A stretch of DNA of 64,000 nucleotides from a bacterium (lineage in GTDB: Bacteria; UBP18; UBA7526), in assembly GCA_030615855.1 (NCBI GenBank), contig JAUWYL010000001.1:139008-203007 (forward strand), read 5' to 3'. Both the position numbers and the translations under genes were made by a program. Numbering within the stretch: position 1 is the stretch's first letter; the number at the start of each line of letters is the position of its first letter. Shown one piece after another: positions 8,244 to 63,945 of the stretch. The notes beneath the pieces are model-generated. The model was not told the DNA's origin. It did no database searches and saw nothing but the letters and a program-made list of their open reading frames with translations.

Positions 8244-8746
8244 ACCTAAAAAAATATTACTGGGGATTAAGCGAGAAAGCCATTAAAGAGACCGAAGAAA
8301 TAATCAGAAATCCCCAACATCCCAAATTTCTCTCACGGATTTTTACCTTACTTTCCAGGTGCGACAAGCCGGAGGAATTATTTTCCCTGATAAGCAGAAA
8401 ACAATTTATAGAGGTATGGCCTAAAGTGCGGCGATACTGGATAAAAAGGTCTCAGGCAAAGGATTTTCGTTCCTGGTGGGAAACCATTTATGAGCAGCTT
8501 CTGGAAGAAGTTAAAGGGAGAAAGAGACCGAAAGGCGAACCAATGAAGATTTTTAAACATACTGGGGAAGTAATCAAAAAAGCAAGGATTGAAAAAGGTT
8601 GGAGTCAATCCGACTTTGCCCGAAGGGTGGGCATGAAACAGCCGGATATTTCAGCAATAGAGAAGGGTAAGAAAAATATTACTTTGGAAACCCTGGCTCG
8701 ATTATGTAAGATATTGGACATCAAAAATATACCAGTAAAGGAATAA
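8240..8746 (+). CDS. protein with C-terminal XRE-type HTH (putative partner of the NTase)
   Basis: 4-nt overlap with the upstream gene. C-terminal KGWSQSDFARRVGMKQPDISAIEKGKKNITLETLARLCKIL is a Cro/C1-type HTH. Confidence 0.5.
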   Translation: MNLKKYYWGLSEKAIKETEEIIRNPQHPKFLSRIFTLLSRCDKPEELFSLISRKQFIEVWPKVRRYWIKRSQAKDFRSWWETIYEQLLEEVKGRKRPKGEPMKIFKHTGEVIKKARIEKGWSQSDFARRVGMKQPDISAIEKGKKNITLETLARLCKILDIKNIPVKE

Positions 8747-8818
8747 AACTTTACCCGCCTGCCCTTATTTTTGAGCGTTAGCGAAAAAAGAGACAACTTG
8801 CTTGGCTCATTTTTAAAT

Positions 8819-8841
8819 GCCCGCCTCTTCGGCGGGTTTTT
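8819..8841 (+). terminator. intrinsic terminator (GCCCGCC-loop-GGCGGG-TTTTT) within a dispersed repeat
   Basis: GC hairpin followed by a T-run. The same module occurs at 22688-22730. Confidence 0.6.
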
Positions 8842-8949
8842 GCTTACAGCAAAAAACATAAGAATTTGGAAACAGTGGTAATGGGCTTGTTATACCTATA
8901 ATAAGCATTCGCGCGAATGCGAAAGTGAAAAGTTGGAAGAAATTGAGGG

Positions 8950-18419: not shown

Positions 18420-18482
18420 TAAATTGCAAAGTGCCTGCCTGTCGGCAGACAGGCAAAATTAGCAATGCAAAACGGGATAGTA

Positions 18483-18572
18483 AAATCAAAAATCAAAAAT
18501 GAAAATGTAAAATGACAAACCATAAAAAATCAAAGTGTAAAAATCAAAATGACAATGCAAAAATTAAAATCT
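18483..18572. repeat. degenerate 7-nt tandem repeat block (AATCAAA/AATGAAA units)
   Basis: Direct reading of the sequence. Confidence 0.7.
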
Positions 18573-21559: not shown

Positions 21560-21682
21560 CATGATAAGGTTGAAAGAGTGGAATATCGAGTAAAGGCTAC
21601 GTTATTATGAGTTCGGAGTTAACAGTTCGGGGTTCGGAGTTGTTGGGAGAGAAAAATAAATAACAAAAGCTACAATTCTTAT

Positions 21683-21716
21683 CGCAGGAGTCTTAAAAAG
21701 CTCTTGTTTTTATTTT
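21683..21716 (+). terminator. intrinsic terminator, degenerate member of the island-associated terminator repeat
   Basis: cgcaggagtcttaaaaagctcttgtttttatttt, preceded by agctacaattctt. Compare with 34931, 36298 and 40989. Confidence 0.5.
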
Positions 21717-21755
21717 AGGGCAGGATAGAAGAGAGTAATAAGACTTTTTTGGAGT

Positions 21756-22541: not shown

Positions 22542-22687
22542 AGATAAAGAAGATAAAAGGCTCTTTCTTTGCCCCCTAAAATTTCTGAACCGACTTATTT
22601 TCATTCTTCTTTTTATTACGTCCTAACCAAAGTTTTGCCCACAGAGTAACAAGGTTCTGCCCGTAGGGCAGGTTCTTATTTTTAAAT

Positions 22688-22730
22688 GCCCGCCTCTTCG
22701 CCTGCCTGTCGGCAGACAGGGCGGGTTTTT
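22688..22730 (+). terminator. intrinsic terminator containing the GCCTGCCTGTCGGCAGACAGGC palindrome
   Basis: gcccgcc...ggcgggttttt. This is a repeat module shared with 8810-8880. Confidence 0.6.
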
Positions 22731-22874
22731 GCTATAAGCAAAAAACATAAGAATTTGGAAATATGATGTTGAAATTTGCTATAAGGAAATAAAAGGAATC
22801 AAACGTAATTTTCCTTGACTTTTAGAGAGAAGTAGATTATACTGTAAAGTGAATTAACTTGACAGGGGAAAGAA

Positions 22875-24397: not shown

Positions 24398-25164
24398 GAA
24401 TCGACATCTTAACCCTCTTTCCCAACATGGTAAAAGGGCCTCTGAAAGAGAGCATATTGAAGAGGGCCCAGGAAAAGGGTTTGGTGAAGATAAACGTTTT
24501 AGATATTCGCTCCTTTACTCATGATAGACATAGGACAGCAGACGATGCTCCCTATGGTGGGGGAGCGGGAATGGTTTTGAAGCCAGAGCCCATATTTGAG
24601 GCCATGGAATCCATTAAATCAAAAATCAAAAATCAAAAATCAAAAATCAAAGTGATACTGATGACTCCTCAGGGGAAGAGGTTTGATCAGGGGATGGCAA
24701 AGGGATTAGCAAGAGAGAAACATCTGGTCTTTATCTGCGGCCACTATGAGGGAATAGACGAGAGAATAAAGAGAATGGTAACGGATGAGATATCCATCGG
24801 CGATTATGTCCTCACTGGCGGGGAATTAGCCGCCTTAGTAGTCATCGATGCCTTGGTTCGTCTCATTCCCGGGGTCTTGGGGAAGGAAGAGTCTATAATC
24901 TGTGACTCTTTCTATTCTGGTCTCCTGGACTATCCCCACTATACTAGGCCAGGGAAGTATCGGGGAATGAGAGTTCCCAAGGTACTTTTGAGCGGGGATC
25001 ATAAAAGAATCGCCAGATGGAGGAGAAAGGAAGCCCTGAGAAGGACACTAGAGAGGAGGCCGGACCTGTTAAAAGAAATCAAATTATCTAATGAGGATAA
25101 GAGGTTACTAAGAGAGATTAAAGGTCTCCGACCCAGAGGGGTCTCTGACCTGGAGGGAGAATAG
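24394..25164 (+). CDS. trmD: tRNA (guanine37-N1)-methyltransferase
   Basis: RIDILTLFP...YGGGAGMV...GDYVLTGGE. It contains an in-frame AAATCAA heptamer repeat (24616-24651). Confidence 0.85.
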
Positions 25165-27075: not shown

Positions 27076-27117
27076 GGTTTACGGTTAACGGTGTACGGTG
27101 TACGGTAAACGGTCAAC
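27076..27117. repeat. 6 x 7-nt tandem repeat GGTNNAC
   Basis: ggtttac ggttaac ggtgtac ggtgtac ggtaaac ggtcaac. Confidence 0.85.
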
Positions 27118-27134: not shown

Positions 27135-27998
27135 ATGATGGGATTAGCCAAGGTCTATAGTAGTGCAGTACTGGGAATAGATGCCTATTCCGTAGAGGTG
27201 GAGGTAGATATTGCCAAAGGACTTCCCTCATTCAATACCGTGGGTCTCCCCGATGTGGCAGTGAAGGAGTCCAAAGACAGGGTGAAGGCAGCAATAAAGA
27301 ACTCAGACTTTAAATTCCCGACAAAGAGAATCACTGTCAACCTTGCTCCGGCGGATGTTAAGAAAGAAGGCTCTTTATTCGATCTACCCATTGCTTTGGG
27401 AATCTTAGCGGCCACTGGGCAGATTGAGAAGGCGGAATTCAAAAAATATGTTATCTTGGGAGAATTATCCCTGGATGGAGGGATACGCTCCATCCCTGGT
27501 GCCCTGCCCATTGCTCTGGCCGGTCAAAAAGAAGGGAGAGAGGGAATTATTCTTCCTCTGGATAATAGGGCAGAGGCAGCGGTAGTAAAGGGTCTAAATG
27601 TCTATCCTGTGGAGAACCTCTCCCAGACAGTAGATTTCTTAGCGGGAAAGACAGAGATTGAACCCTTCTCCTTAGATTTAGAAGGAGTCTTTGAGAGAGG
27701 GAGAGAATATAAGGTGGATTTTACAGATGTCAAGGGACAGGAACATGCCAAGCGGGCCCTGGAGGTGGCGGCAGCCGGAGGGCACAATGTAATCATGATC
27801 GGTCCTCCGGGCTCAGGGAAGACCATGCTTGCCCGGAGATTTCCTACCATTCTTCCTGATATGACTCTGGAAGAAGCCCTGGAGACAACAAAGATTCATT
27901 CCATCGCTGGCCTTGTGCCTCCTCAGACAGCACTCATCGCCACCCGCCCCTTCAGGAGCCCCCATCATACGGCATCAGATATTGCACTGTTACAATAG
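27135..27998 (+). pseudogene. comM: comM/yifB (Mg-chelatase-like competence ATPase), 5' portion truncated by element insertion
   Basis: N-terminus LAKVYSSAVLGIDAY.VEVEVD...GLPDVAVKESKDRV and the GPPGSGKT Walker A box are present. The ORF ends at ...RSPHHTASDIALLQ-stop, where intact ComM continues LIGGG...IPRPGE. Confidence 0.8.
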
Positions 27999-28002: not shown

Positions 28003-28055
28003 TAAGGTAGAAAAGGTAGAATATCGCATAGAAGCTACATTCTGATGGCGCTTAT
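27998..28055. repeat. island repeat unit copy 1 (GGGGTAAGGTAGAAAAGGTAGAATATCGCATAGAAGCTACATT), abutting the left junction
   Basis: Related copies at 34872-34966, 36246-36336 and 40932-41024. Confidence 0.6.
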
Positions 28056-28246
28056 TGTTACTATATGGTTAGTCAGCACAAAAACTTGACAAAATAGCAA
28101 AAGTGTATTATAATATAAATAACAAATAAAACTTGACAAAGTGTAAAAACCGTGATATGTTATAGGCCACGGGAGTAATTTCCAATAAAACAAGGATTGA
28201 AACTAGGAAAATCTACATTAATAATTATGGTAAGTAGAGGAAAAAC

Positions 28247-29104
28247 ATGAGGCGAGATATACTCTATTTTGGTGCCCCTGATAGTTTCACGCATATAGCT
28301 GCACTGAAAAGATTTGGTCCAAAGTATGACTATAAATCTTACTGGGCTATAGAAAAACTATTTGATGTTATTTTGGCAAATCCTACTAATATAATGGTAG
28401 TGCCTATTGAAAATAGTACTGGTGGAACAGTTCAACGTACTGCTGACGAATTAGTAAGTGATAAATTCGGAAATAGTGATTTGCGTATTCATGAACAACT
28501 GGAATCAAACATAGTTTTGAATTTAATAGGCCGCGAAAAGAATTTATCAAGTCTTAGAAAGATATACTCACATTCATATGCACTTAGATATTGTGAAGAC
28601 TGGTTAAAGGAGACTTTGCCAAACGCAGAAATGATTTTAGTAAATAGTACTTCGGAAGCGGCTATACGTGCAAAAAATAACCGAAAATCTGGTGCAATTA
28701 GTAGCACAAAAGCAGCAAAAACGTATAATTTGAAAATAATAAAAAGGAATATTAGCAAAAACAAAGCAGTTAATGTTACAAAGTTTTATGTTATAAAGAA
28801 AACAGGTAAGAATATTCTAAAACAAAGCAACAGGACTTCCGTTGCTTTTTCCTTGAAAGATAGAATTGGTGCCCTATGCGATGTCCTTGGGATATTGGCC
28901 AATAAAAAAATTAATTTAACTCGAATCATATCTTGTCTCAAATATGACAGTTCAAATAGGAATAAAAAATTAGATAAATATGCATTTCTTATAGAACTCG
29001 AAGGTAATATAGCCCAACAGAAAGTAAAAATAGCTCTTGATGAGTTACAAAGAGCTACCTTGGCTATGCATATTTTAGGTTCCTACCCCACAAGAAAACT
29101 TTAA
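28247..29104 (+). CDS. prephenate dehydratase-like protein (PDT domain + ACT domain), divergent
   Basis: YFGAPDSFTHIAALKRFG...VVPIENSTGGTV and IYSHSYALRYC are PDT-like. VAFSLKDRIGALCDVLGILANKKINLTRI is ACT-like. The TRF motif reads TKF and ESRP is not conserved. Very AT-rich. Confidence 0.55.
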   Translation: MRRDILYFGAPDSFTHIAALKRFGPKYDYKSYWAIEKLFDVILANPTNIMVVPIENSTGGTVQRTADELVSDKFGNSDLRIHEQLESNIVLNLIGREKNLSSLRKIYSHSYALRYCEDWLKETLPNAEMILVNSTSEAAIRAKNNRKSGAISSTKAAKTYNLKIIKRNISKNKAVNVTKFYVIKKTGKNILKQSNRTSVAFSLKDRIGALCDVLGILANKKINLTRIISCLKYDSSNRNKKLDKYAFLIELEGNIAQQKVKIALDELQRATLAMHILGSYPTRKL

Positions 29105-29325
29105 CTGAAAAACAATAATGTAGATGTGGTTACATCTTGACAGCTTTGGCAAGAATATAAATTTTCTTAAAGATATACCTCTCCAAAAATCAGAAGCCCC
29201 TACTCTTCAGAGGGTTCTTTTTATGCCAAAAATCTTTAATAATCCCCGCCAACTCAGGTGGGTTATTTTTTTGTTGAAATGAAATCTTTTTCAATTTACC
29301 GACGAAGAAGGCACAGAAAAAAGTC

Positions 29326-29354
29326 TTGACAAATCAAATATCGTAGTTTATACT
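29326..29354 (+). promoter_or_regulatory. sigma70-like promoter TTGACA-17-TATACT for the 204-aa orphan gene
   Basis: TTGACA at 29326-29331 and TATACT at 29349-29354, followed by SD AAGGAGG and ATG at 29376. Confidence 0.55.
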
Positions 29355-29375
29355 ATAATCAAAAGGAGGCAAAAG

Positions 29376-29990
29376 ATGGCTAAGTTGCCGTTTCCACAAT
29401 TTCTAAGTCGTTATGGAATCAAACTTCTCTTTACTGCTACTCCGGACGTGGTGCCGGGTACGATCATAGACAAGAGAAAGAAAGGGTTCTTCGGCATTGG
29501 AACCCTTAAACAAGTTCTGGGAGGAGGCCCGGCAAAGTGGGCGACCAAACTTCAACCGGGAAATTTGGTCTATGGCACAATAGAACGGGCTCTTAGTCTT
29601 AAAGGCAAAGCGAGCCTAAACGAGTTCGGTGTGGCAATCAGCGGTGGTCTCAGACGCGCACGGTCTGTTACTTTTGAAATCACGGGCGTCAAAGTTCGAA
29701 CATTCAAAACGCAGAGTATGATTACGATATCACCTGCACTCCACAAGCTTCGCAAGTCGAACAAGCAACTTTGGAAAATGGTAAATAATAATTGGATTGC
29801 GGATTATGTTTATTATGCCAGCGAAGCAACGGTGAAGTTCTTCGTTAACGGGGGAGTGAACCTCAAAGCGGATATCCAGAATCGTTTGAAAGTGTCGGGA
29901 GAGGCAGGGGTTCAATGGAAATCCAATCGCAGCTTCACGATAACAAATAACCAAGAAGTACCTTTCGGTTTTAGCGGCTGGAAAGTTTAA
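29376..29990 (+). CDS. hypothetical beta-rich protein, compositionally distinct (GC ~47%, CGN Arg codons)
   Basis: Own promoter and own terminator. Segments with alternating hydrophobic/polar residues (SVTFEITGVKVRTFK, ATVKFFVNGGVNLKAD) suggest amphipathic beta-hairpins. No family recognised. Confidence 0.4.
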   Translation: MAKLPFPQFLSRYGIKLLFTATPDVVPGTIIDKRKKGFFGIGTLKQVLGGGPAKWATKLQPGNLVYGTIERALSLKGKASLNEFGVAISGGLRRARSVTFEITGVKVRTFKTQSMITISPALHKLRKSNKQLWKMVNNNWIADYVYYASEATVKFFVNGGVNLKADIQNRLKVSGEAGVQWKSNRSFTITNNQEVPFGFSGWKV

Positions 29991-30100
29991 GGTTGGTTGC
30001 ACACCTTATCGTCATTCGTTTGTCGGTTACGGTTTTTGACGAACTACGTAACCCCTAAACGAAACGGGCGTCCTGACCGTATTGCGTATAACGAGCAATG

Positions 30101-30133
30101 CAGGAGCCTTTAATGGCTCCTCTTTTTTTGTTT
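30101..30133 (+). terminator. intrinsic terminator GGAGCC-TTTAAT-GGCTCC + T-run
   Basis: Perfect 6-bp stem followed by T9. Confidence 0.7.
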
Positions 30134-30237
30134 TAGAAGCAGGGCGAAGGAGAGATAAAAGGCTTGTTACACTTCCCTGAGTATGCTACAATGTAATTAA
30201 CATCACGAACGAAAATCCACCTGAGAACGGAGGACTA

Positions 30238-31459: not shown

Positions 31460-32998
31460 ATGAAAAAGACTATTCTTTTAATAACAGCGTTGATTCTAAT
31501 CTTCTCGTTATGCAGAACTGGCGACTCCTACGCAGTCAGCGATAAAAAATTGGCAAAACTTGCCAAGAAAGCAGGAGGGACAATTACTGAAGCACAAGAA
31601 TCTCTTACCCGATGGAAGACCGCTGACCTTATTGTACCTCCCGAAGCTGAGAAAATCCTGGAAAAAGCTCGTAAGGCCCATAAGGCGGGTAGCTACAAAG
31701 AGGCTCGTAAGCTGGCCGAAGAGTCTCTTAAAACTAGTAGCGATAAAGGAGCATGGAAACTTGCCCAGAAGACGAAAGAAATAATCACTCAGGCACAGGG
31801 CTACATTAACCTCTGGGAAAAGGAAGACCTTACTCCTCCACCCCAAGCCAAGGAAATTTTGAAGAAAGCCAAAGCAGCTTACCAGTCATACAATAATGAA
31901 GAGGCTTGCCAGCTCGCCAGCCAATCCCTTAAAATAACCACCGATGAAGGACTGAAAAAAGAGGCCCGGAAAGCAAGGGGGGCAATTACTGAAGCAGAAG
32001 CCAGTATCACCAGATGTGAATCTGCAGGATACACTGTTCCTCAAGCCAAAGAGATCCTGAGAAAAGCTCGCCAAGCAAATGAAGCGTGTAATTATAAAGA
32101 AGCACGTAAGTTAGCTAAAAACTCTCTCGAAGTAAGTAGCAAAAAAAAGATAGCCGGGCCCGCTGAAATTAAACCTAAAAAGGTAGAGAAAACAATTAAA
32201 AAGGTAGAAAAAAAGATCTCCAAGTGGGAATCTGAAATACAAATTCCTATTCCCCAAGCAAAAAAATTTATAGAAGAAGCTAACACGTTCTACCAGTCAG
32301 GTAATTATAAAGAGGCGCGCAATCTGGCCGGAAAAGCATATAATTCCTGGCAGCATGCGGTGATGGCAGAAAGGTATATCAAAGGAATGGAAGCCCACGC
32401 TACCAAATGGGAGTCTGCGGGCTACGATGTTCCCCTCACGAAGAAAATTCTTCGTGAGGCTCGCCAAGCACAAAAAGATGGAGAACAAGAAAAAGCCCAC
32501 CATTTAGGTGCAACAGCTGTCATTGTACTAAAACGAGAAGTAGCAGGAAGCTTTGAACCAAAAATAGAATTTCAGATTAATCCCCAGCATGGCTTGACCA
32601 AGTACAAAAAAATCGTTGTTTTAAAGATTGGTGATGCACCTCAAACCTTAGGTTCCGGGGAAATAGTGACAAACCTCGTATCCCATACTCTGGCAAAAAG
32701 AAAATATCAGATAGTGCAAAATAAAGAAGAGGCTGATGCCATCATCTCTGGATCCCTAACCCGGTATGAGGCCCAAGAATCTAGTTATCGCCTGCATTCA
32801 AAAGCCTTCATTTACAAATCCCGCGTAGAATCCTACTTCCTCGCCACCGTAGAGTTAACACTTAATATGAAAGATGCTAAAACGAACACTACTGTTTGGC
32901 AAGTTAAGGGTAAACAAGAGATGGCTTCTAAAGAAATAAAACCCGTAGCCCAATCAGTCATTAACGCCATCTTAGACCAGGTTCCGCAGAGTAAGTAA
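31460..32998 (+). CDS. lipoprotein with five tandem ~45-aa helical repeats and C-terminal LpoB/CsgG/TolB-N-like alpha/beta domain
   Basis: Signal peptide with lipobox FSLC. Repeats of the form ...TRWKTADLIVPPEAEKILEKARKAHKAGSYKEARKLAEESL. C-terminal YKKIVVLKIGDAPQ...IISGSLTRY. The longest ORF starts with TTG at 31436; SD plus ATG are at 31460. Confidence 0.5.
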   Translation: MKKTILLITALILIFSLCRTGDSYAVSDKKLAKLAKKAGGTITEAQESLTRWKTADLIVPPEAEKILEKARKAHKAGSYKEARKLAEESLKTSSDKGAWKLAQKTKEIITQAQGYINLWEKEDLTPPPQAKEILKKAKAAYQSYNNEEACQLASQSLKITTDEGLKKEARKARGAITEAEASITRCESAGYTVPQAKEILRKARQANEACNYKEARKLAKNSLEVSSKKKIAGPAEIKPKKVEKTIKKVEKKISKWESEIQIPIPQAKKFIEEANTFYQSGNYKEARNLAGKAYNSWQHAVMAERYIKGMEAHATKWESAGYDVPLTKKILREARQAQKDGEQEKAHHLGATAVIVLKREVAGSFEPKIEFQINPQHGLTKYKKIVVLKIGDAPQTLGSGEIVTNLVSHTLAKRKYQIVQNKEEADAIISGSLTRYEAQESSYRLHSKAFIYKSRVESYFLATVELTLNMKDAKTNTTVWQVKGKQEMASKEIKPVAQSVINAILDQVPQSK

Positions 32999-34871: not shown

Positions 34872-34966
34872 AAGGGGGATTTTAGGAAAGAATAGAATAT
34901 CGGGTAGAAGTTATGTTATAATGTTCACCGCAGGAGTCTTAAAAGGCTCCTCTTTTTTTGTTTTAG
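34872..34966. repeat. island repeat unit copy 2 (includes terminator)
   Basis: aaagggggattttaggaaagaatagaatatcgggtagaagttatgttataatg...cgcaggagtcttaaaaggctcctcttttttt. Confidence 0.7.
34931..34962 (+). terminator. intrinsic terminator (AGGAGT-loop-GCTCCT + T-run)
   Basis: Hairpin plus T9. Identical module at 40989. Confidence 0.65.
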
Positions 34967-36245
34967 AAGAGGGGAAGAGATATCTAAAAACCGATTCAGA
35001 ATCAATCAAGGAGAAGCCAGGCCGTGCTCAATCTTTAAGTGCAAGTTTAATTCCTGCTCAACAATATCCATTTTGGAACCAATCCGAAAACCCCTCATGA
35101 ATTTATTCAGGAAATGTGGGTTGCCTCATTCCCAGAATAAAAATCTAAAGTTCATCAGCGGTTTTCTCTTCCAAAATGAATTGACCAGGAATTAAACCCC
35201 CTTCTCTTCAAGATGACCGAGCTGAGAATTAGAACCAAGATATCTTAGTTCATTCCAGTCCAGAGATGTAGGGATGCCTCATCTCTTCCCTTCCACTCAT
35301 AAGATAATACCCTTCTATCTTCCAGCGAGCCTGTTAGGGTCTTGGACCTAATTCTCACATTTTAAAGAGAAGGGTCATCATCTACCCCAGCGAGATAGAT
35401 GATGTTTCCACTCAAAGATTACTGGCTTCTCCTCCTGAATCTATTATGGATGACCCCCAAATTCTGCCAGGCAAGAAAGATTGTGTGGGTGGTGGTGGAC
35501 AGGCTCACTCCTCCTGGGGTGGTGGCAACCTTTCCCCTCGCATAGCATCGAAGCTGGGCGGGAAAGCCACGCCCTTCCCCTTTAGCGGGGAATTGGGCAG
35601 ATAATGCGCATTATCTGCCCTTGCTCACTATGGATGTTGGGTCGTCTTTTCGGGCTAAAACCTCAACATAAAATTTATTTTATGTTAACCTGCCACCACG
35701 CAAGAGGGATATGTCATTTGGCCCACCATCCCTTTCTGAGGGACGACCAATAAAGATGTTTCACCCTTAAGGTCGCCCTCATACTCCCACCCGTTATCCC
35801 ACCAACAGGTTCTCATACCATTAACCACTACAGGAGAGGGCATCAGGCTTCATAAAAGGAGCATCTATCCTTTGGGGAGGGGCTATCAGCAGGAAGCATA
35901 TATCTGGGGGAGCACCTATGGAATGGACAGAGAAGCTTCGAAGCAAAGCAGGAAGAAAGTAGCAGGCAGGAACGAACCGGGGGAGTCCGGGTAGATGTAT
36001 CCTCCCAGCGGCTCTTTGCTCCCGTAGCAGACTATTCCGCATGTCCGGAACAGGCAAGAAGAATCTCTGAATTTTATGGAAAAAGTCTGTAAGCCCCCGT
36101 CGCTATTGAACTTAGGGGAATTTCGGGTATTCCGTCTGAACGGAACAGCCTTTAAGAAGCAGGGATCTATCACCCCACACTTTAAAAATGCGATATAGGA
36201 CGGATACGGAGCTCCCAGGGGCATTCCAGGGAAGTATCTAATGGC
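34967..36245. other. ORF-free ~1.3 kb block, GC ~50%, rich in perfect palindromes (candidate cis-acting ori/oriT/att region or large ncRNA)
   Basis: No ORF longer than 102 aa on either strand. Loop-less palindromes GGGCAGATAATGCGCATTATCTGCCC (35595-35620) and AACATAAAATTTATTTTATGTT (35666-35687), plus a 9-bp-stem hairpin at 35376-35404. Bounded by repeat copies 2 and 3. Confidence 0.35.
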
Positions 36246-36336
36246 AAAAGGGTGAAAGGATAAAATATCGGGGGGAAGCTACATTATAATGCTTACCGCA
36301 GGAGTCATAAAGTGAATCCTGTCTTTTTGTTTTAAA
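36246..36336. repeat. island repeat unit copy 3 (diverged; includes terminator 36298-36334)
   Basis: aaagggtgaaaggataaaatatcggggggaagctacattataatg...cgcaggagtcataaagtgaatcctgtcttttt. Confidence 0.6.
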
Positions 36337-36424
36337 ACAGAGTAAAGGAGAGTAAAAAAATGCTTGCAATTTCCACCGAAATATGATAAGATTTTAAGTA
36401 GAAATTGAGGTAGAGAGAAAAATA

Positions 36425-40635: not shown

Positions 40636-40953
40636 ATGACTAAAACCTACTTTGAAGAAATCTCAACTCAAACTATGGAGCATATCAAGAAGGCCATATT
40701 AGAATACCGACAAGGCAAATATAGCGACCCTATGGTACTGCCTAACGCTATTGCCGCAATTCTGGAGACAGAGATAGAGGATCCGGAATATCAGAAATTT
40801 GCGGTAGAAAATTATAGTCAAATTGTCGGAATTGTCATTAATAAAAATCCAAAGTATTTAGCCATTAAGAGTAATATTGAAAGAGATTTTTACTTTCAGG
40901 TCGATGACGAAATAGTAGAGGCTTATCAAAAAGGAGTAAGGTTAAAAGGATAG
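40636..40953 (+). CDS. hypothetical small protein (start at SD-ATG MTKTYFEE; longest ORF from 40561)
   Basis: SD GGGGAG precedes the ATG at 40636. The C-terminus reads into repeat copy 4. Confidence 0.35.
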   Translation: MTKTYFEEISTQTMEHIKKAILEYRQGKYSDPMVLPNAIAAILETEIEDPEYQKFAVENYSQIVGIVINKNPKYLAIKSNIERDFYFQVDDEIVEAYQKGVRLKG

Positions 40954-41024
40954 AATATCGGGTAGAAGTTATGTTATAGCGCTTCTCGCAGGAGTCTTAA
41001 AAGGCTCCTCTTTTTTTGTTTTGG
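40932..41024. repeat. island repeat unit copy 4, closest to the attL-adjacent copy (includes terminator 40989-41022)
   Basis: aaaaaggagtaaggttaaaaggatagaatatcgggtagaagttatgttatagcg...cgcaggagtcttaaaaggctcctcttttttt. Confidence 0.7.
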
Positions 41025-41049
41025 AGCAAAATAAAGAAGGATAAAAGAG

Positions 41050-41172
41050 GCGATAAAAAATATTTTTCGGGAGCAAACCAAAAAAGGACTTGACTTTTTC
41101 TATAAAATATGGTATATTATAAGTAGTAGTGGTTGAGGGGTTAACTTTAATTTTCAGGAGGGAATAGACGGG
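41050..41172 (+). repeat. duplicated promoter/leader block, copy A (promoter TTGACT 41090-41095, TATATT 41113-41118)
   Basis: ~85% identical to 41489-41612 and includes a diverged copy of the first codons of the MerR-like gene. Confidence 0.7.
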
Positions 41173-41222
41173 GGGCAACTTCTTTAAAATCTGATGGGGC
41201 TGGATGAGATGGGAGATGAGAA

Positions 41223-41438
41223 ATGAAGAATCATGATCCTTGCCTGCGTTCTCTCTTCCAGTGCTTCCTTGAAAAACTGGGGAATATGGAAAAGGAAGAT
41301 TTCTTTGCCGTTGTTCGGGAACATTACCCCGGCGAGGAGGCCTTTGAAGAATTCATTAGCTACTTCAAAAGCGAAGAGGGAATTGACAGGTTTACAACCA
41401 TTCTGTCCGAAGAAGCAAGAAAAATAAGAATTGACTGA
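41223..41438 (+). CDS. small acidic protein (71 aa), likely born from partial duplication
   Basis: Driven by promoter copy A. Confidence 0.3.
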   Translation: MKNHDPCLRSLFQCFLEKLGNMEKEDFFAVVREHYPGEEAFEEFISYFKSEEGIDRFTTILSEEARKIRID

Positions 41439-41488
41439 AAAGAAAGTAGGGATGGGGAGGAAACCGGCCAAGAAGAGGAGAAGGGGGG

Positions 41489-41612
41489 CAATAAAAAATA
41501 TTTTTCGGGAGCAAACCAAAAAAGTACTTGACTTTTTCAGTAAGATATGGTATAATATAAAGTAAGGTGGTAGAAAGACTAACTTTAATCTTTCAGGAGG
41601 GAACAGATGGAG
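41489..41612 (+). promoter_or_regulatory. duplicated promoter/leader block, copy B (TTGACT 41528-41533, TATAAT 41551-41556) driving the MerR-like gene
   Basis: Consensus -35/-10 with 17-nt spacer. SD CAGGAGGGAACAG followed by ATG at 41607. Confidence 0.6.
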
Positions 41613-42401
41613 AATAACTTCTTTAAGATCGGTGAAGCTGTCCGTATCCTTAAAAAGGAGTATGAAAACTTGACAGCGAGCATGCTGAGATACTGGGACC
41701 AGAAAGGAGTCGTCGAGGCTTCAGAGAAGACAGAAGGGGGGCAGAGAGTATATAGAGTCGAGGATCTGGACTTAATCAGATATGCCAGGGAATTGTCAAT
41801 ATCCGGTTGTTCGCTCGGTATAATCAGAAAGGCAATCAAGGAAACTAAACTCGTTGCGAAAACTCCCAAATACTCTGCCGAATCATTCAGAAAGGCCCTT
41901 ATCAAACTAATCCGGGCTCTGCGAGCATTTAATAAACTCGAAAGACGACTAGAGGTACACAATCAGCAATCTCTTGGGGAACGATTTGAACCGATATACG
42001 ACAGAGAGGCACTGGTAAAATTATCAGGGGATCCGGCCTCTGAAAAGATTATAGATAAAGCAGAGAAATATAACTTAATATTTCCTGGAAAATCGGGTAA
42101 AAAGAAGAGATACAGCCGGGCTGACGAAGTGATCTTAAGATATTTGTTACTGATGGGAATATCTGAAATCAAAAAATTCAAAAACCTTTATGATATTATT
42201 AAGTACTTAGAAGAAGAGGTGGGCGTTACTGTAACAGTTAAGCCAGGAAAGAACTTTGCATATTTTCTGCTCCCTGGAGTTCGTTCACAATCCTTTACAG
42301 AGCGCATTGCGACACCTCAAGATCGTCTATTTCAGTTGCTGCACGATCATTACGATTATATTTACGGAGCTGTGAAGATGCTGGCGGAGCCCCATGTCTA
42401 A
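41607..42401 (+). CDS. MerR-family HTH regulator with long C-terminal domain (possible excision/regulatory factor of the element)
   Basis: N-terminal FKIGEAVRIL...SMLRYWDQKGVV...GQRVYRVEDLDLIRYAREL is a MerR-type HTH. Confidence 0.55.
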   Translation: MENNFFKIGEAVRILKKEYENLTASMLRYWDQKGVVEASEKTEGGQRVYRVEDLDLIRYARELSISGCSLGIIRKAIKETKLVAKTPKYSAESFRKALIKLIRALRAFNKLERRLEVHNQQSLGERFEPIYDREALVKLSGDPASEKIIDKAEKYNLIFPGKSGKKKRYSRADEVILRYLLLMGISEIKKFKNLYDIIKYLEEEVGVTVTVKPGKNFAYFLLPGVRSQSFTERIATPQDRLFQLLHDHYDYIYGAVKMLAEPHV

Positions 42402-42993: not shown

Positions 42994-43980
42994 ATGGAGA
43001 GGTGTAAGATGAAACGTTTACCCAGTGTATCAGTCAAGCTCGCTAGTATAATCTGTATAGCAGGTTTCATCCTTCTGTGGTATGTTTTAATTGCGGCCCA
43101 CACTACAGGACTTGTTAAGAGTTGTTTTATCATCTATAGCATAGGTTTGATGGTGGTTACTTCTTATTGGAGCTATAGAATTGCAGAATGGGTCCGAATA
43201 AGGAATACGCAATCTGTAAAAAACATATTTGCTTTTTTCTTCGGCAAATTATTTAGCCCTCGCGCACTTAAAATATTCGAGAAGATAAGGACTGAGCACC
43301 AGGATACCATCGACAAAATCCGGGGTTCTCTATTCCGTGAAGCTTCTCCGGAAGACGAACTTGTTATATCCTTGATAAATCGTCTCTTATCTGCTCTTTT
43401 TGATTTACCCGATTTTAAATACGGACAGAAGAGTCTTTTTTCCTACTCTTTACTGGTAGCCGTTCACTCCTTAGAAGATTTTGAAACGAGAGTCTGGCGG
43501 ATGGAGACCCCGGAAGGAACGCGCGACGGCGTTAAAACAATTATGATGAGGGATAAATGGAAGTTAGGAGTTTGTATCTCTGCCCTGGCGAGTAACCTAG
43601 GCAGGGTTTACGAAGCGGAAGTATCTAGCCGTAAAGCATCTGCAGAAGTTTGGAACCCAGGGCGTGAAGAACTTTATACCTTCGCCCTTCGCCATAAGGA
43701 GTATGGTATTAAGTTGAAACCTACTCAAGAAAATTTCCACAAAATCCCCACCAATTATCTCCTTCATTATATTGTGAATAGCGATGTGGCTGAAGAATTG
43801 GGAGAAGAAGTGTTCTTTGAGGTGCTGGATTCCCTGTCTCCTGCTCCTAATTCCAAGAATCGTATCTTCCCTGTGGTGGAAGAAGGAAACAAGCTAACTG
43901 TTGAAGAAATCTCTAAATCCAAAGAGGCAGTGAGAGGAGGTCGGTATTGTCCACCAGAGAAGAAAACAAAAGAAAACTAA
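42994..43980 (+). CDS. membrane protein (two N-terminal TM helices) with a cytoplasmic domain
   Basis: Hydrophobic segments SIICIAGFILLWYVLIAA and IIYSIGLMVVTSYW. Confidence 0.4.
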   Translation: MERCKMKRLPSVSVKLASIICIAGFILLWYVLIAAHTTGLVKSCFIIYSIGLMVVTSYWSYRIAEWVRIRNTQSVKNIFAFFFGKLFSPRALKIFEKIRTEHQDTIDKIRGSLFREASPEDELVISLINRLLSALFDLPDFKYGQKSLFSYSLLVAVHSLEDFETRVWRMETPEGTRDGVKTIMMRDKWKLGVCISALASNLGRVYEAEVSSRKASAEVWNPGREELYTFALRHKEYGIKLKPTQENFHKIPTNYLLHYIVNSDVAEELGEEVFFEVLDSLSPAPNSKNRIFPVVEEGNKLTVEEISKSKEAVRGGRYCPPEKKTKEN

Positions 43981-44879
43981 TTCAGGCAGTTGCAAAACGT
44001 GAATCTTTAATGCGTGTGCTTTTTGTTCTAGACTGGTTTGGTTGGGCTACCATCAGACAAGCAGCAGGATACCTGCATCTGTCAACGCGACGGGTGAACT
44101 GCATCTTAGACGAATTATTTGAATCCAGGATGGTGAAGTACAAACGGACACACGCTCTCTTCGGAAAAGGACGACGATATTGGTATCTGCTCCGTAAAGG
44201 AATATCTGTCCTTAGGGTTAGAGACCCTCATGTTTTTTCCTCGCCAATCCGCAGGGGCCAAATCCCGGATACCCCCTTTAGCCATCATCATGGTGTTGTA
44301 GATGCCATTATTGAATTACGGGAAAAAGGATTCAAATGCACTTCTTGCCGTCACTCTTTATGGCCTAGTTTAATGCAGCAATATGGCAAGCAATACCATA
44401 ATATACCCGATTTCTGGGTAAAGAAGGAAAAAGAAACCTTTATAGCCGCCGAGGTGGAGCGAACGGTCCGTGGTAAGAGGTATTATGCCCCTAAAATGAA
44501 TAACCAGCAAAAAAGATATTTTGAACGGTTTATCCCCACTCTCTACATTCCCATGACTAAAAAAGTAGAAAAAAATCTTCATAAGATAATCAAACAGATA
44601 AAACAAACTGGTGAATACACTATGAAGAAGGGAAAGCCGGATCACCTGAAGACTATGGCAGAATTTGACTATAGATACCGGAGTGGGGAAAAAGTAGGCG
44701 CCGTGGATGGCGGAATCGGATTTATGTTCAGCAATACAGAAATGACTAAATTTACTGCCCCGATTGCTTCAACCGGTGAGTGGATCGAGAGTCCTTTTAC
44801 AGAGTTGGCGGATAAGGCTAAAAAGATATCTGAGACGCTCTTCAAGAGAGAGGAGGGCGAAGTTCTGAAAAGATTTTGA
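43947..44879 (+). CDS. winged-helix protein, possibly replication-relaxation-like
   Basis: N-terminal wHTH-like LMRVLFVLDWFGWATIRQAAGYLHLSTRRVNCILDEL. Family assignment is tentative. Confidence 0.35.
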   Translation: MSTREENKRKLIQAVAKRESLMRVLFVLDWFGWATIRQAAGYLHLSTRRVNCILDELFESRMVKYKRTHALFGKGRRYWYLLRKGISVLRVRDPHVFSSPIRRGQIPDTPFSHHHGVVDAIIELREKGFKCTSCRHSLWPSLMQQYGKQYHNIPDFWVKKEKETFIAAEVERTVRGKRYYAPKMNNQQKRYFERFIPTLYIPMTKKVEKNLHKIIKQIKQTGEYTMKKGKPDHLKTMAEFDYRYRSGEKVGAVDGGIGFMFSNTEMTKFTAPIASTGEWIESPFTELADKAKKISETLFKREEGEVLKRF

Positions 44880-44943: not shown

Positions 44944-46548
44944 ATGAAGTGTGCTATTTATATCCGGGTATCAACTACTGAACAGGCAGAAAAAGGAACG
45001 AGTTTAAAAACCCAAGAAGAAGCCTTGAAGAAGTATTGCCAAGAGAACAATTATCAGATTTATAACATCTACAAAGATGATGGTTATAGTGGTGGCACTC
45101 TTGACAGGCCAGGGATTCAAAGGCTGTTAGAAGATATTAAGGAAGGCAAATTTCAGGCTGTTATAGTTTATAAGACAGACCGCTTGAGCAGATCTATTAG
45201 AAACATAGTTAATCTCGTGCTTGGTGATTTTGAAAAATATGGCATAATCTTTAAGTCTATTACTGAGCCTTATGATACTTCTATGCCTGCCGGCAGGATG
45301 TTCTTTGTTCAATTAAGTAGTTTCGCAGAATTTGAAAGAGAGACGATCAAAGAAAGAAGTAAAGAAGGCAAGTTAAGAAGGACCTTAGAAGGCAAATATA
45401 TGCTGAGCGTTCCACCTTTTGGCTATAGAAAAGATAAAAACAAAAGGCTAATTATAGACCGAGAAGAAAAGAAAGTTTATCTCCAAATAGTAAGATGGTG
45501 TTTAGATGGTGTAGGTAGTAATACTATTGCCCGGAGGCTCAATGAGCGAAACATCCCAACTAAAAAGGCTAAACTCTATAATAAACCATATAGATGGAAG
45601 CAGGGAACAGTCCTTGATTTTTTAAAACACCCTCGTTATAAAGGAGAGTTTATCTATAAAGGACATAAAGTAAAGATTCCAGCTCTGATTACAGAGGGGC
45701 GGTGGGAGCAAGTCCAGAGGCAATTAGAGAGCAACTATAACAATGCTTTAAGACATACAAGGCGGTTTTATCTTTTGAGGAATCTCTTATACTGCAAGAA
45801 ATGTGGAAGAAGGCTCTTTGGTTTGATAAAGCCCAAGAAGGGGATGAGACTCTATTGTTGTCTCAGTAAAAGGCCAGACCCAGAACCCAGATTTTGTGGC
45901 CTCAAAAATGTTAATATAGATAAAACGAATATTATTGTCTGGAATAAAATCAAAGAGATAGTCAAGAACTCTCAAAAATTAAAAGAGGCCATAGAGGAGC
46001 AAAAGGGTAGCCATTATGTTAAAGGTTACATATCCGAAATAGAGGTAAAGAATATTAACCAAATTATTCAAAGCAAAGAGAGGGAAATTGATAGGATTTT
46101 AGAACTTTATAGTCGGTCAAAAGCATTATCTATCGCAGAGTTAGATAGAAAAGTAGATGGCATTAAAAAACAAAAAGATAACTTAGTGCAGGAAAGAGAG
46201 AAAATATCAGAGGAAATAAATCGGGCCAGACAGGCAAAAGAGACTTTAAAACATCTTGAAAACTATATGGCAAAGATAAGCAAAAGAATAGATAATTTTA
46301 CTAATGAAGAAAAGTATGAATTTATCCATTTGATTGTAAGTAAGATTATAGTTGATTATGACAGAGATTTAAGGTATCATAGTATAGAGATAGAGGGAGC
46401 AATACCAATATTTAGAGAGGAAGACAGGATTCCTAAATATACCCCCCTATTACAACAAGACAATAGATATTTCCCTAATAGGGGGAGGGAGAATCCCCCG
46501 TCCAGGCGAGGTGAGCCTCTCTCACCATGGGGTTTTATTCTTAGATGA
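44944..46548 (+). CDS. large serine recombinase (integrase) of the element
   Basis: The YIRVSTTEQ catalytic Ser motif and VYKTDRLSR resolvase motifs, a recombinase domain, and a Cys-rich zinc ribbon CKKCGRRL...CC. The 3' end reads through the right junction into host sequence. Confidence 0.85.
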
Positions 46549-47164
46549 ACTACCAGAGTTTAAGAGGAACGTCTTAGAAGTCCTGCGCCAGCCTTTAGAG
46601 GATGGGGGGGTCACCATATCAAGGGCGGTCACTTCTTTATCCTATCCCGCACGGTTCATGCTCACTGCGGCCATGAACCCCTGTCCCTGTGGCTTCTTCG
46701 GTGATCCAGTAAATGAGTGCACCTGTACTCCTCCCAAGATCCAGAAGTATAGATCGAGGATATCCGGACCTTTGCTTGACAGGATCGATCTCCACTTAGA
46801 GGTTCCCCGGGTGAAGTATAAGGAGCTCGCCTCTCAGGAGACGGGAGAGAGATCAGAGGTGATAAGGAAGAGGGTGAACAAGGCAAGGATCATTCAGCAG
46901 AAGAGGTTCCAAGGCCGGAAGGGAATCTTCTGCAATGCCCATATGGAGGCCAAAGAGATTAAGGAATTCTGTAAGATTGGTGAAGAGTCTCAGGATCTCA
47001 TTAAGTTGGCCATTACCCAGTTAGGTCTATCTGCCCGGGCTTACGATAGGATACTGAAAGTCTCCCGAACCATCGCAGATTTAGAGGAAAAACCTGATAT
47101 CGAACCGGCCCATGTCTCAGAGGCCATTGGCTATCGGAGCCTGGACCGCACTCTCTGGATGTGA
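46460..47164 (+). pseudogene. comM: comM/yifB 3' portion (resumes at [32 protein letters not shown])
   Basis: The in-frame translation upstream of the GTG at 46511 continues the ComM consensus [23 protein letters not shown]. The C-terminus reads [15 protein letters not shown]. Confidence 0.8.
46477..46485. repeat. right junction copy of AATAGGGGG
   Basis: See 27994-28002. Confidence 0.5.
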
Positions 47165-51506: not shown

Positions 51507-51558
51507 GCAAAATGCAAAATGAAAAATGCAAAATGCAAAATGAAAAATTGAAAAATTT
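51507..51558. repeat. 7-nt tandem repeat GCAAAAT/GAAAAAT, forming the 5' end of the annotated dprA ORF
   Basis: Direct reading of the sequence. Confidence 0.8.
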
Positions 51559-62906: not shown

Positions 62907-63945
62907 AAGAGTCAAGATAGGCAAAGTAGCTGTTGGTGGTGGGGCACCAGTCTCTGTCCAGTCCATGACCAAGACGGATACCAGCGATATAAAAGCAACG
63001 GTCAAACAGATTAAAGAGTTGGAAAGAGAGGGCTGTGAGATCATAAGGGTTGCCATTCCAGATAAAGAGGCAGCAAAAGCGATCCCCAAGATAAAGAAGA
63101 GAATAAAGATTCCCTTAATTGCCGATATTCACTTCGATTATCGGTTGGCCCTGGAAGCCCTGGAAAATGGAGCGGATGGCATAAGGATAAACCCCGGGAA
63201 TATCAGAGACAAAAAGAGAATTATCCAGATTGTAAGGAAAGCAAAAAAGAAGAGAATTCCCATAAGGATCGGAGTAAACTCCGGCTCTCTAGATAGAAAG
63301 AGATATAAAGGACCCTTAGCCCAAGCCATGGTGAGGAGCGCACAAGACTCTATAAAGATATTTGAGAAGCAAAAATTCTACGATATTATTATCTCTTTGA
63401 AAGCATCAGATGTTCTAACTACAATAAAAGCCTATAAATTAATGGCTAAGAGATGTAACTACCCCTTTCATCTGGGAATAACGGCCACCGGCCTTCCTCC
63501 CTTAGGAATAATTAAATCTGCTCTGGGCATTGGAAGCCTATTGCTTGAGGGAATTGGGGATACTATCAGGGTCTCCCTCACTGGCCCACCCCAAGAAGAG
63601 GTGAGGGTAGGCTATGAGATATTAAGAACTTTAGAGTTACGAAAAGGGATGGAGATACTTGCCTGCCCCACCTGTGGTCGCTGCGAAATAGACCTGATCA
63701 AGATAGCAAAAGAAGTTGCAAAAAAGGTTTACGGTGAACGGTTTACGGTTAACGGTAAACGGCCACTGAAAGTGGCCATCATGGGCTGTGTAGTGAATGG
63801 CCCGGGAGAGGCCAGGGAAGCAGATATCGGCATAGCAGGAGGAGAGAAGATAGGAGTAATCTTCAGAAAAGGCAGAGTAATAAAGAAGGTAAAAGAGAAA
63901 GATTTAGTCTCTACACTCTTGGCTGAGATAGAAAATATGATGTAA
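62887..63945 (+). CDS. ispG: 4-hydroxy-3-methylbut-2-enyl diphosphate synthase with in-frame heptamer-repeat insertion
   Basis: GcpE motifs, including C-terminal CPTCGRC. The repeat ggtttac ggtgaac ggtttac ggttaac ggtaaac lies at 63726-63762. Confidence 0.85.
   Translation: MKRRRSRRVKIGKVAVGGGAPVSVQSMTKTDTSDIKATVKQIKELEREGCEIIRVAIPDKEAAKAIPKIKKRIKIPLIADIHFDYRLALEALENGADGIRINPGNIRDKKRIIQIVRKAKKKRIPIRIGVNSGSLDRKRYKGPLAQAMVRSAQDSIKIFEKQKFYDIIISLKASDVLTTIKAYKLMAKRCNYPFHLGITATGLPPLGIIKSALGIGSLLLEGIGDTIRVSLTGPPQEEVRVGYEILRTLELRKGMEILACPTCGRCEIDLIKIAKEVAKKVYGERFTVNGKRPLKVAIMGCVVNGPGEAREADIGIAGGEKIGVIFRKGRVIKKVKEKDLVSTLLAEIENMM

Follow-up and report, generated by a model that had tools for sequence, protein, structure and literature searches.

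In the f1/M13 intergenic region, an ORF-free stretch of roughly 500 nt, hairpins in single-stranded DNA (ssDNA) join the nick site and complementary-strand priming. Among integrative elements, the nicking of the transferred strand, its priming and its conversion to duplex are known for very few. Single-strand origins (sso) have been functionally defined only in Firmicutes plasmids and in ICEBs1 (PMC4595007). The known sso's are 168-340 nt in length, are orientation-specific and contain about three stem-loops, the structure of which outweighs the sequence, and they are active only when single-stranded (PMC4595007). At the prototype origin of transfer (oriT) of the MOBH systems, a stable 32-nt inverted-repeat hairpin is needed beside nic, and it is structure, not sequence, that counts (PMC6736028). 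Characterised oriTs are AT-rich, and in MOBH systems the oriT does not necessarily adjoin the relaxase gene (PMC5587640). In the leading regions of plasmids, Frpo/ssi sequences, which are ssDNA promoters, form long hairpins on the transferred strand (PMC11541004).

The locus investigated here is a non-coding block of 1.3 kb in the genome of an uncultivated bacterial lineage, located within a window of 64 kb, the whole stretch of DNA that was analysed. The block lies inside an island of 18.5 kb that interrupts comM, and in which mobilization genes of MobH-like and MobC-like type are found together with genes for a large serine recombinase and for defence functions (Table 1). This gene content makes the island a putative mobilizable element. 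The recombinase gene overlaps the beginning of the C-terminal half of comM, and relatives of this recombinase are likewise inserted in comM. The MobH match of the island protein scores 47 bits, under the curated cut-off of 200, and the protein sequence lacks an HD dipeptide; the protein may therefore be inactive as a relaxase. The only homologue found for it is distant and lies on a contig of 1.3 kb. Among the island ORFs, none was recognised as a Rep gene. The island also encodes MerR-like and HTH proteins. Apart from the block, no large stretch of the island is non-coding and rich in repeats. The block is separated from the mob genes by 7 kb and from both comM junctions by 7-10 kb.

Table 1. 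Coordinates of the island genes, bounding repeats and structural features of the block within the window.
Feature	Position	Strand	Evidence and description
comM N-terminal half	27135-27998	+	Pfam ChlI and Mg_chelatase positions 1-91; left island border
Left bounding repeat (module A+B)	34887-34967	+	Repeat family D1, alignment, terminator scan, fold
Block	34968-36254		Non-coding, 1287 bp; between two repeat copies
Domain 1	35009-35433	-	Four-way junction: three hairpins and closing stem, 0-1 nt linkers; GC 41%
Domain 1 closing stem	35009-35044 / 35406-35433		87-100% complementary
Hairpin A	35045-35197	-	153 nt, imperfect, ~60 bp; inverted repeats I2, I15, I3, I5, arm alignments
Hairpin B	35199-35374	-	176 nt, long, branched; inverted repeats I6, I4
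Hairpin C	35376-35404	-	Perfect 9-bp stem; 13 bp with G.U pairs, minus strand only
Domain 2	35438-35765		Multi-hairpin, both palindromes; inverted repeat I8; GC 50.6%
Domain 2 closing stem	35509-35527 / 35691-35709		GGTGGTGG/CCACCAC
26-bp perfect palindrome	35595-35620		GGGCAGATAATGC followed by GCATTATCTGCCC, 13+13
AT-rich dyad	35665-35686		AACATAAAAT-TT-ATTTTATGTT, 10-bp arms
Domain 3	35766-36254		~490 nt, purine-skewed, unstructured; GC 50.4%; no coding signal
31-nt direct repeat, copy 1	36033-36063	+	D3; dyad TTCCG-N6-CGGAA at 36035-36050
31-nt direct repeat, copy 2	36128-36158	+	D3; dyad TTCCG-N6-CGGAA at 36130-36145
Right bounding repeat (module A+B)	36255-36335	+	Repeat family D1, alignment
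Sigma-70-like promoter	36364-36392	+	TTGCAA-17-TAAGAT, after right repeat, for methylase gene
MobH-like putative relaxase	42994-43980	+	NCBIfam MobH E = 1.6e-12; Pfam TraI_2 E = 0.0044
MobC-family 'replication-relaxation' protein	43947-44879	+	NCBIfam E = 2e-6
Large serine recombinase	44944-46548	+	Pfam Resolvase, Recombinase and Zn_ribbon_recom; right island end
comM C-terminal half	46511-47164		Pfam

The original prediction, made from the sequence of this stretch, of a block free of ORFs is borne out. From start to stop, no ORF exceeds 102 aa (35916-36224, minus strand), and frames that are open between two stops extend to at most 109-112 codons; all three stop codons are present in each of the six frames, and codon log-odds revealed no codon-usage signal in any frame. 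The GC content was also correctly described as elevated, however the difference of about 50% against 35% that had been given is somewhat overstated, because the block as a whole is at 47.1-47.2%, against 38.4% elsewhere in the island, and only 35441-36254 reaches 50.5%; 34968-35440 is at 41%. The 5 kb to the left of the block are at 40.6%, the 5 kb to the right at 35.6% and the whole window at 43.3%. G-rich tracts are concentrated in the block, and three of the five copies of GGTGGTGG in the window fall within it (35488, 35491 and 35518), in agreement with the repeated tracts noted there previously. An assembly artefact is unlikely to be the source of the block, since independent Logan contigs match it at 100% identity and the arms of its repeats are imperfect.

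As had been claimed, the block is bounded on both sides by copies of one repeat, which is about 80 nt long and carries a terminator. The left copy comprises a conserved 5′ element, a TATAAT box in the loop of a small hairpin, and a GC hairpin with a T-run; the scan placed its intrinsic terminator, on the plus strand, at 34932-34951. The TATAAT of the repeat module, a palindrome, can be read on the minus strand too, as a -10 box (36288-36283). Scans of the block found no convincing promoter or terminator delimiting an RNA. Promoter-like sites are no more frequent than expected by chance (3 observed, 3.3 expected), among them CTGGCA-16-CATAAT on the minus strand (35470-35443), and downstream of domain 1 on this strand there is only a weak AU/GU hairpin followed by U5. 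Integron attC sites were considered for the bounding repeats and rejected, as the GTTRRRY core of the attC R″/R′ sites (RYYYAAC ... GTTRRRY) was not seen in them by eye; Pfam, PHROGs and NCBIfam scans of the island ORFs of at least 110 aa and of two smaller ones revealed no tyrosine integrase.

The main feature of the block, absent from the original prediction, is a 425-nt four-way junction of nested long inverted repeats. This domain 1 is built from inverted repeats I2-I6, I9, I14 and I15, is more structured than any other part of the island and, as a single strand, is extraordinarily stable. With RNA parameters it folds at -148 kcal/mol (z = -9.5) on the plus strand and at -187 kcal/mol (z = -11.2) on the minus strand; with DNA parameters, the z-scores are -10.4 and -13.3, respectively. 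Usable wobble (G.U) pairs number 15 on the minus strand and 3 on the plus strand (p = 0.0075), and 25 and 11 for domains 1 and 2 together. This asymmetry in domain 1 points to folding as a single strand, whether ssDNA or RNA, rather than to a symmetric double-stranded protein site. The 9-bp stem described previously, that of hairpin C, is exact. Hairpins A and B are not duplicates of each other (alignment z = 1.1).

Domain 2 is folded less strongly (RNA parameters, z = -3.9 on the plus and -4.6 on the minus strand; DNA parameters, z = -3.7 and -3.0). Its larger palindrome was correctly identified as a perfect 13+13 dyad with no loop; it occurs once in the window and is the longest perfect short-loop hairpin there, and a 12-bp stem was reached once in 20 shuffles. 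No exact copy of the 26-mer was found in genome or metagenome collections. It had been argued that dyads without loops indicate protein-binding DNA rather than RNA hairpins. That argument is unsound, because the palindrome can still fold as an 11-bp hairpin with a 4-nt loop; the DNA-level interpretation it was meant to support, in the form of an oriT, still stands as the most plausible. The second, AT-rich dyad is present, one base away from the position originally assigned to it, and it is not loop-less, because a 2-nt TT spacer separates its 10-bp arms. A Xer/dif site, defined by the XerD arm TTATGTTAAAT, a partner arm and a spacer of 6-8 bp, was considered at this dyad and rejected: there is a 9/11 match to the XerD arm at 35680-35690, and 30 such matches occur in the window against 29.6 expected.

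Domain 3 does not fold (z = +2.1 on the plus and +0.06 on the minus strand). The operator-like dyad TTCCG-N6-CGGAA occurs twice in the 64 kb, against 0.18 expected, and both occurrences are in this domain, 95 bp apart within the direct repeats. AGCAGGAAG-like repeats are also present.

Relatives of the block were sought widely. There was no DNA homologue in blastn searches of phages and of 72,556 plasmids, two 21-mers of domain 1 were not found in viral contigs, and the pattern of the repeat module gave only chance matches in coding DNA in viral and metagenome collections. A recombinase search of a genome contig collection gave no match. No homologue of the block is present in the islands with related recombinases (L003-L010) or in 80 viral loci; the related islands carry entirely different cargo.

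A DNA-level cis-acting site, and especially an origin of transfer, is the most plausible reading of the block. If the island is mobilizable, as the split comM, the recombinase and the MobH-like and MobC-like genes suggest, an oriT would be required, for which the block is the sole large candidate stretch. It is tentatively proposed that the block acts in cis when single-stranded, combining an oriT hairpin with an sso-like priming fold. The island would excise and a relaxosome would nick beside a stable hairpin, the candidate for which is the 26-bp palindrome of domain 2. The minus strand, displaced or transferred, would fold domain 1 into three stem-loops, which would act as a single-strand origin (sso/ssi) by recruiting RNA polymerase or primase, and complementary-strand synthesis would start from this fold. 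The TTCCG-N6-CGGAA dyads may bind an accessory or regulatory protein, and the flanking terminators may shield the block from read-through transcription.

In common with the sso's of rolling-circle plasmids and sso1 of ICEBs1, which is likewise located on an integrative element with an ssDNA stage, the block is non-coding and, by fold prediction, contains about three stem-loops in which structure would matter more than sequence; the same restriction to one strand or orientation of ssDNA is proposed for it (PMC4595007). The extensive, strand-specific ssDNA structure expected of an sso/ssi is found here, in both the DNA-parameter z-scores and the wobble pairs. In contrast to the sso's, domain 1 is larger, at 425 nt, is a closed four-way junction, and is not beside a relaxase gene; no sso sequence similarity or CS-6/RSB motif was found by blastn against the 72,556 plasmids. 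The likeness to the MOBH oriTs of the gonococcal genetic island TraI system (PMC6736028) and of IncA/C (PMC5587640) lies in the candidate nick-adjacent hairpin, in the multiple inverted and direct repeats and in the distance from the relaxase gene, which can be large in MOBH systems as it would be here. However, known oriTs are short (50-150 bp) and AT-rich, whereas the block has 1287 bp at 47% GC in an island of 38%, is much larger than known oriT or sso regions, and has as its sole locally AT-rich part the 22-bp AT dyad; the MobH-like protein of the island is also divergent. Frpo/ssi regions resemble the block in their long ssDNA hairpins and in their typical downstream cargo of methylase genes (PMC11541004), and the best-folding strand would template all of the island genes. 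They differ in that their -35 and -10 hexamers arise in the hairpin stem, immediately before an ORF, whereas the stems of domain 1 contain no -35/-10 pair (no site of at least 9/12) and the methylase gene, the next ORF, is ~1 kb downstream, past a terminator, and a Frpo-type promoter was therefore rejected. The f1/M13 intergenic region serves as an analogy only, as the block has neither phage replication genes nor sequence similarity to it.

The strand bias that supports a single-stranded cis-acting region would also fit a transcript. It is possible, if rather unlikely, that the block specifies one or two large structured non-coding RNAs (ncRNAs) from the minus strand, with the ends of domain 1 paired and domain 2 as a second fold, carried as cargo of a defence-rich island. 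The excess of G.U pairs on the minus strand, in domain 1 and in domains 1 and 2 together, and the lower folding energy of this strand are consistent with such RNAs; an RNA initiated from the promoter-like site at 35470-35443 would begin exactly with the 5′ arm of the closing stem, and the module TATAAT offers a further minus-strand -10 box. Large ornate RNAs are found in mobile elements. GOLLD, ROOL, OLE and HEARO, like the block, are non-coding, large and composed of several domains, with an elevated GC content and a location in mobile elements, and the terminator-flanked position in a 'cassette' place recalls them; however, the helices of the block are much longer and more perfect than theirs. 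Uninterrupted helices of 13-19 bp are present in the folded block, and helices of this length are atypical of stable bacterial RNAs. Long near-perfect RNA helices would also be substrates of RNase III. There are no Rfam matches at gathering thresholds in the whole window, and the best on the block up to E = 10 is at 18 bits and not credible, including for GOLLD, ROOL, OLE, group I/II introns, 6S and RNase P. In addition, promoter-like sites are at chance frequency, there is no credible minus-strand terminator past domain 1, and the GC elevation does not track structure, domain 1 being at 41% and the unstructured domain 3 at 50%.

This same step in GC content, from 41% to 50.5% at the border of domain 1, would be expected were the block a non-functional mosaic, in which a foldback (MITE-like) element of ~425 bp, domain 1, lies in leftover foreign DNA of higher GC, domains 2 and 3, between cargo cassettes. 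This is unlikely. As in foldback/MITE elements, the outer stem resembles terminal inverted repeats (roughly 30 bp, 87-100% complementary) around a hairpin-forming interior, with a possible short flanking duplication: the flanks GAATCAAT and GAATCTAT form a 7/8 direct repeat (p about 0.012-0.016), which is a weak signal. The block is missing from related islands with their different cargo, and the related element L006 carries an ORF-free foldback of its own, unrelated to this one. However, domain 1 is single copy in the available data, no second copy of it or of any part of it being found in the window or in fetched loci. It is also hard to obtain three abutting helices in an ordered junction within a closing stem by random insertion, and the asymmetry in wobble pairs suggests selection on one strand.

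Function as double-stranded DNA is improbable. Under this explanation, the block would be a regulatory or replication region, with operators or iterons for the MerR-like, HTH or MobC-like proteins, or a ColE1-like RNA-primed origin. The paired TTCCG-N6-CGGAA dyads confined to domain 3, the two palindromes, the concentration of G-rich tracts and the AGCAGGAAG-like repeats would fit it, but symmetric sites explain neither the strand-biased wobble pairs nor the 425-nt fold. Regularly phased iterons are absent, and by eye no sequence comes closer to a DnaA box than 6/9. Half-sites of the 26-bp palindrome occur elsewhere in the island at chance level and are absent near island promoters, and a Rep gene was not recognised. 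Two further functions suggested originally fare no better: an attP-like site is unsupported, as the att junctions of the recombinase coincide with the breaks in comM (27998 and 46511), away from the block, and partition-type sites would require iterated centromere-like repeats, of which the block has none.

It is also doubtful that domains 1 and 2 (~760 nt) represent an undescribed class of large structured nucleic acid, a minus-strand RNA or an ssDNA 'landing' fold, carried as a self-contained cassette, insulated by terminators, in mobilizable islands with defence cargo in Elusimicrobia-like uncultivated bacteria and with a function unrelated to oriT or sso. Were this so, the function might be, for example, to counter or to trigger host defence upon entry.

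A decayed protein-coding cassette, to which the cassette-like slot between the repeats and the purine skew of domain 3 (like that of plus-strand genes, with one frame having 3 stops in 171 codons) might point, is very improbable, given that the six-frame search found no protein homologue at E <= 0.01 among 5.8 billion proteins, that tblastx against the window and the related loci gave no match, and that every frame is broken by all three stops and lacks a codon-usage signal.

The block is a single orphan sequence and is therefore a lead rather than a result. If the proposed single-stranded cis-acting region is real, an oriT/sso defined by its structure, on an island that targets comM through a serine recombinase in an uncultivated lineage, would add to the present picture and provide a clonable test object; if it is instead an RNA, this would represent a new large structured RNA tied to defence cargo.

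Two short resemblances were noted by eye. One is a group II intron D5-like GAGCCG...CGGUUC on the minus strand, which was rejected as the rest of the intron is absent; the other, the only one seen to the sso motifs, is a 5/6 match to TAGCGG in one loop.

Judged from its predicted folds, the ORF-free block at 34968-36254 is a real and unusual feature, non-coding and folded in a strand-specific manner, within a putative mobilizable island. Its longest ORF is 102 aa, and the original prediction of an ORF-free stretch is correct in substance; all three stop codons occur in all six frames, and in no frame of the block was codon usage found like that of the genes in the window. GC content is indeed elevated (47.2% in the block; 38.4% in the island outside it; 43.3% over the window), although not uniformly, the elevation being confined to 35441-36254 (50.5%), with 41% in the first 470 nt. 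As reported, the block lies between two repeat copies and contains recurrent GGTGGTGG tracts (three of the five occurrences in the window). The repeat copies are ~80 nt long, each with a plus-strand intrinsic terminator at its end.

No perfect short-loop hairpin in the 64 kb is longer than the perfect 26-bp palindrome at 35595-35620; in 20 shuffled windows, a 12-bp stem was reached only once. The 9-bp stem is confirmed exactly at 35376-35404. The AT dyad is present, at 35665-35686, although it has a 2-nt spacer and is therefore not loop-less. The absence of loops had been used to argue against hairpins; this does not hold, because either perfect palindrome, folded as an ordinary hairpin, would have a 4-nt loop. 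On the choice between single strand and duplex, both palindromes are uninformative. The 26-bp palindrome has a half-site (CATTATCTGCC) that matches the hairpin C stem (CATCATCTACC) at 9 of 11 positions, which is chance level for a region of this size.

Structural domains of the block, and features of the interrupted comM locus.
Feature	Coordinates	Description
Domain 1	35009-35433	nested long inverted repeats, predicted four-way junction
Domain 1 closing stem	35009-35044 / 35406-35433	
Domain 1 hairpin A		153 nt
Domain 1 hairpin B		176 nt, branched
Domain 1 hairpin C	35376-35404	29 nt
Domain 2	35438-35765	short-hairpin cluster closed by GGTGGTGG/CCACCAC stem; both palindromes inside
Domain 3	35766-36254	unstructured; z = +2.1 and +0.06
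comM N-terminal half	27135-27998	
comM C-terminal half	46511-47164	
Large serine recombinase	44944-46548	island right end, overlaps restart of comM

The block has a three-part build, which had been missed. Domain 1 ranks as the most structured stretch of the island and its stability is extreme: folded as RNA, it reaches -148 kcal/mol on the plus strand (fold energy score z = -9.5) and -187 kcal/mol on the minus strand (z = -11.2), and as DNA z = -10.4 and -13.3, respectively, with linkers of only 0-1 nt between its helices. The folds of domain 2 have z of -3 to -4.6. Domain 3 contains a pair of 31-nt direct repeats, each with the dyad TTCCG-N6-CGGAA, which is found nowhere else in the window (0.18 occurrences expected).

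Fifteen pairs of the domain 1 fold are G.U when the minus strand is read and A-C mismatches at those positions on the plus strand, whereas the converse holds for only three (binomial p = 0.0075). No such bias should be expected from a symmetric double-stranded binding site or from neutrally decaying inverted repeats, and its direction opposes the general plus-strand G-over-C skew of the window. Since the G.U pairs favour the minus strand by 15 to 3, they are taken as evidence that this strand of domain 1 folds on its own, as RNA or ssDNA.

The surrounding window is a bacterial chromosome segment (rpe ... rimM-trmD-lepB-rnhB-yraN-comM) in which an 18.5 kb island has been inserted between the comM halves. 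The closest relatives of its recombinase share 42-55% identity, one being annotated from an Elusimicrobia MAG. In four of seven fetched relatives' contigs (L003, L004, L007, and L008; recombinases 43-55% identical) the recombinase adjoins a comM fragment, and the cargo is wholly unlike that of the island, which points to a comM-targeting recombinase lineage. Just upstream of the island recombinase are a 'replication-relaxation' protein of the MobC family (E = 2e-6) and a MobH-family relaxase-like protein (E = 1.6e-12, under the curated cut-off). With these genes and the recombinase, and no type IV secretion genes, the island best fits the description of a putative integrative mobilizable element. 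Almost all of its genes have plus-strand orientation, and among the cargo are a bacterial gasdermin homologue, a CfrBI-type restriction-modification pair, a DitA-like protein, a radical SAM enzyme, and three lipoproteins.

Most probably, the block is a transfer or single-strand origin region, and so an element of a known kind, although it resembles none of the known examples in sequence. A mobilizable island goes through a stage as a single strand and must have an oriT. No other sizeable region of this island is non-coding and repeat-rich. For the prototype MOBH relaxase, a stable 32-nt inverted-repeat hairpin is required 3 nt from nic, its structure and not its sequence being what counts (PMC6736028), and oriTs of this type may be distant from the relaxase gene (PMC5587640). 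Single-strand origins (168-340 nt) are specific in orientation and defined by structure, with about three stem-loops (PMC4595007). On these grounds, it is tentatively proposed that the block is the oriT or single-strand origin region of the island. The hairpin next to the nick would be the domain 2 palindrome, the minus-strand fold of domain 1 would prime complementary-strand synthesis, the domain 3 dyads may be bound by an accessory protein, and the flanking terminators would insulate the block from transcription. Against this, the block is GC-elevated and far larger than known regions of these kinds, the mob genes are 7 kb away, and the MobH-like protein is divergent, without the HD dipeptide.

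The wobble bias also supports a large minus-strand ncRNA, which is possible, if somewhat doubtful. A promoter-like site would begin transcription exactly at the 5′ arm of the domain 1 closing stem, however sites of this kind are no more frequent than chance, a credible terminator is lacking, GC elevation does not track structure, and the length of the helices is unusual. A foldback element inserted into foreign higher-GC DNA would fit the change in composition at the edge of domain 1 and a weak flanking direct repeat (7/8 match, p ~0.015), however no second copy is visible and this origin is unlikely. Less likely still are a duplex regulatory or replication region, which is improbable, and a pseudogene, for which the chances are very slim; the decayed gene allowed for in the original prediction is not recognisable in the block. 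The attP-like site also suggested there fails because the att junctions of the recombinase are at the comM break. The block matches no Rfam family, an integron attC was rejected, resemblance to a Xer site is at chance level, and it is not a Frpo-type single-strand promoter, since its stems have no -35/-10 pair.

Searches for homologues of the block found none, whether by blastn (50,697 phage and 72,556 plasmid records) or by nhmmer and blastn in 1.2 Mb of related-recombinase loci. The 26-bp palindrome has no exact match in 596 Gb of genomes or in JGI metagenomes, 21-mers of domain 1 are unmatched in viral contigs, and a degenerate pattern of the bounding repeat has no match in viral or metagenome collections. 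Elsewhere, the sequence occurs only in Logan assemblies of SRR14872660, which represent the same genome (100% identity). By these exact-word or BLAST-level searches, which a diverged homologue could escape, the block currently appears to be an orphan sequence. In a related phage-like contig, L006 (recombinase 47% identical), the 1.3 kb immediately upstream of the recombinase (8680-10000) are also free of ORFs and contain a foldback of 360 nt (9322-9683; z = -7.6 minus, -5.7 plus). This stretch matches no Rfam family, is dissimilar to the block in sequence, and may or may not be analogous to it.

The bounding repeats belong to a family with sites at 21566-21734, 28004-28047, 30057-30137, 34887-34967, 36255-36335, and 40945-41025, one copy being outside the island. 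Each repeat consists of module A (GGTAAGGTTGAAAGGATAGAATATCGGGTAGAAG...) and module B (TATAAT and a terminator hairpin), adjacent in three copies and split by inserted DNA in two cases, by 61 nt (21610-21670) and by ~2 kb with two genes (28047 to 30057). In three copies, the TAAGG that opens module A provides the stop codon for the gene upstream, one of these genes being the truncated comM N-terminal half. Tandem motifs also recur in the window, some short and A-rich with units of 6-7 nt (AAAATCA / AAAATGC) and others of the GGTTTACGGT type (18482-18552, 24622-24655, 51510-51556; 27076-27115, 63712-63765), the copy at 27076-27115 lying in the inter-ORF gap just upstream of comM. Of two further dispersed pairs (8806-8872 and 22675-22761; 1940-2035 and 7246-7341), one is a terminator-like ~70-nt unit, 93-96% identical, and the other a 96-nt unit, 81% identical.

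The gasdermin-like ORF (29376-29990, 204 aa; PADLOC bGSDM E = 5.7e-10, NCBIfam E = 5.5e-4) has no obvious protease gene next to it and a prephenate dehydratase upstream. Also upstream of it, 73 nt at 29260-29332 are 93% identical to L006 585-657, comprising a T-run, a conserved upstream element, and a TTGACA -35 box; the island and L006 otherwise have only the recombinase gene in common. At 41038-41630, a ~155-nt promoter-plus-leader segment occurs twice, 438 nt apart (117 nt at 81% and 40 nt at 83% identity), once before a 71-aa ORF and once before a MerR-like gene. The gene for a 520-aa DUF4136/TPR lipoprotein contains three 201-nt tandem repeats (31537-32016; 62-71% identical) and a 12-bp perfect hairpin (32434-32459).
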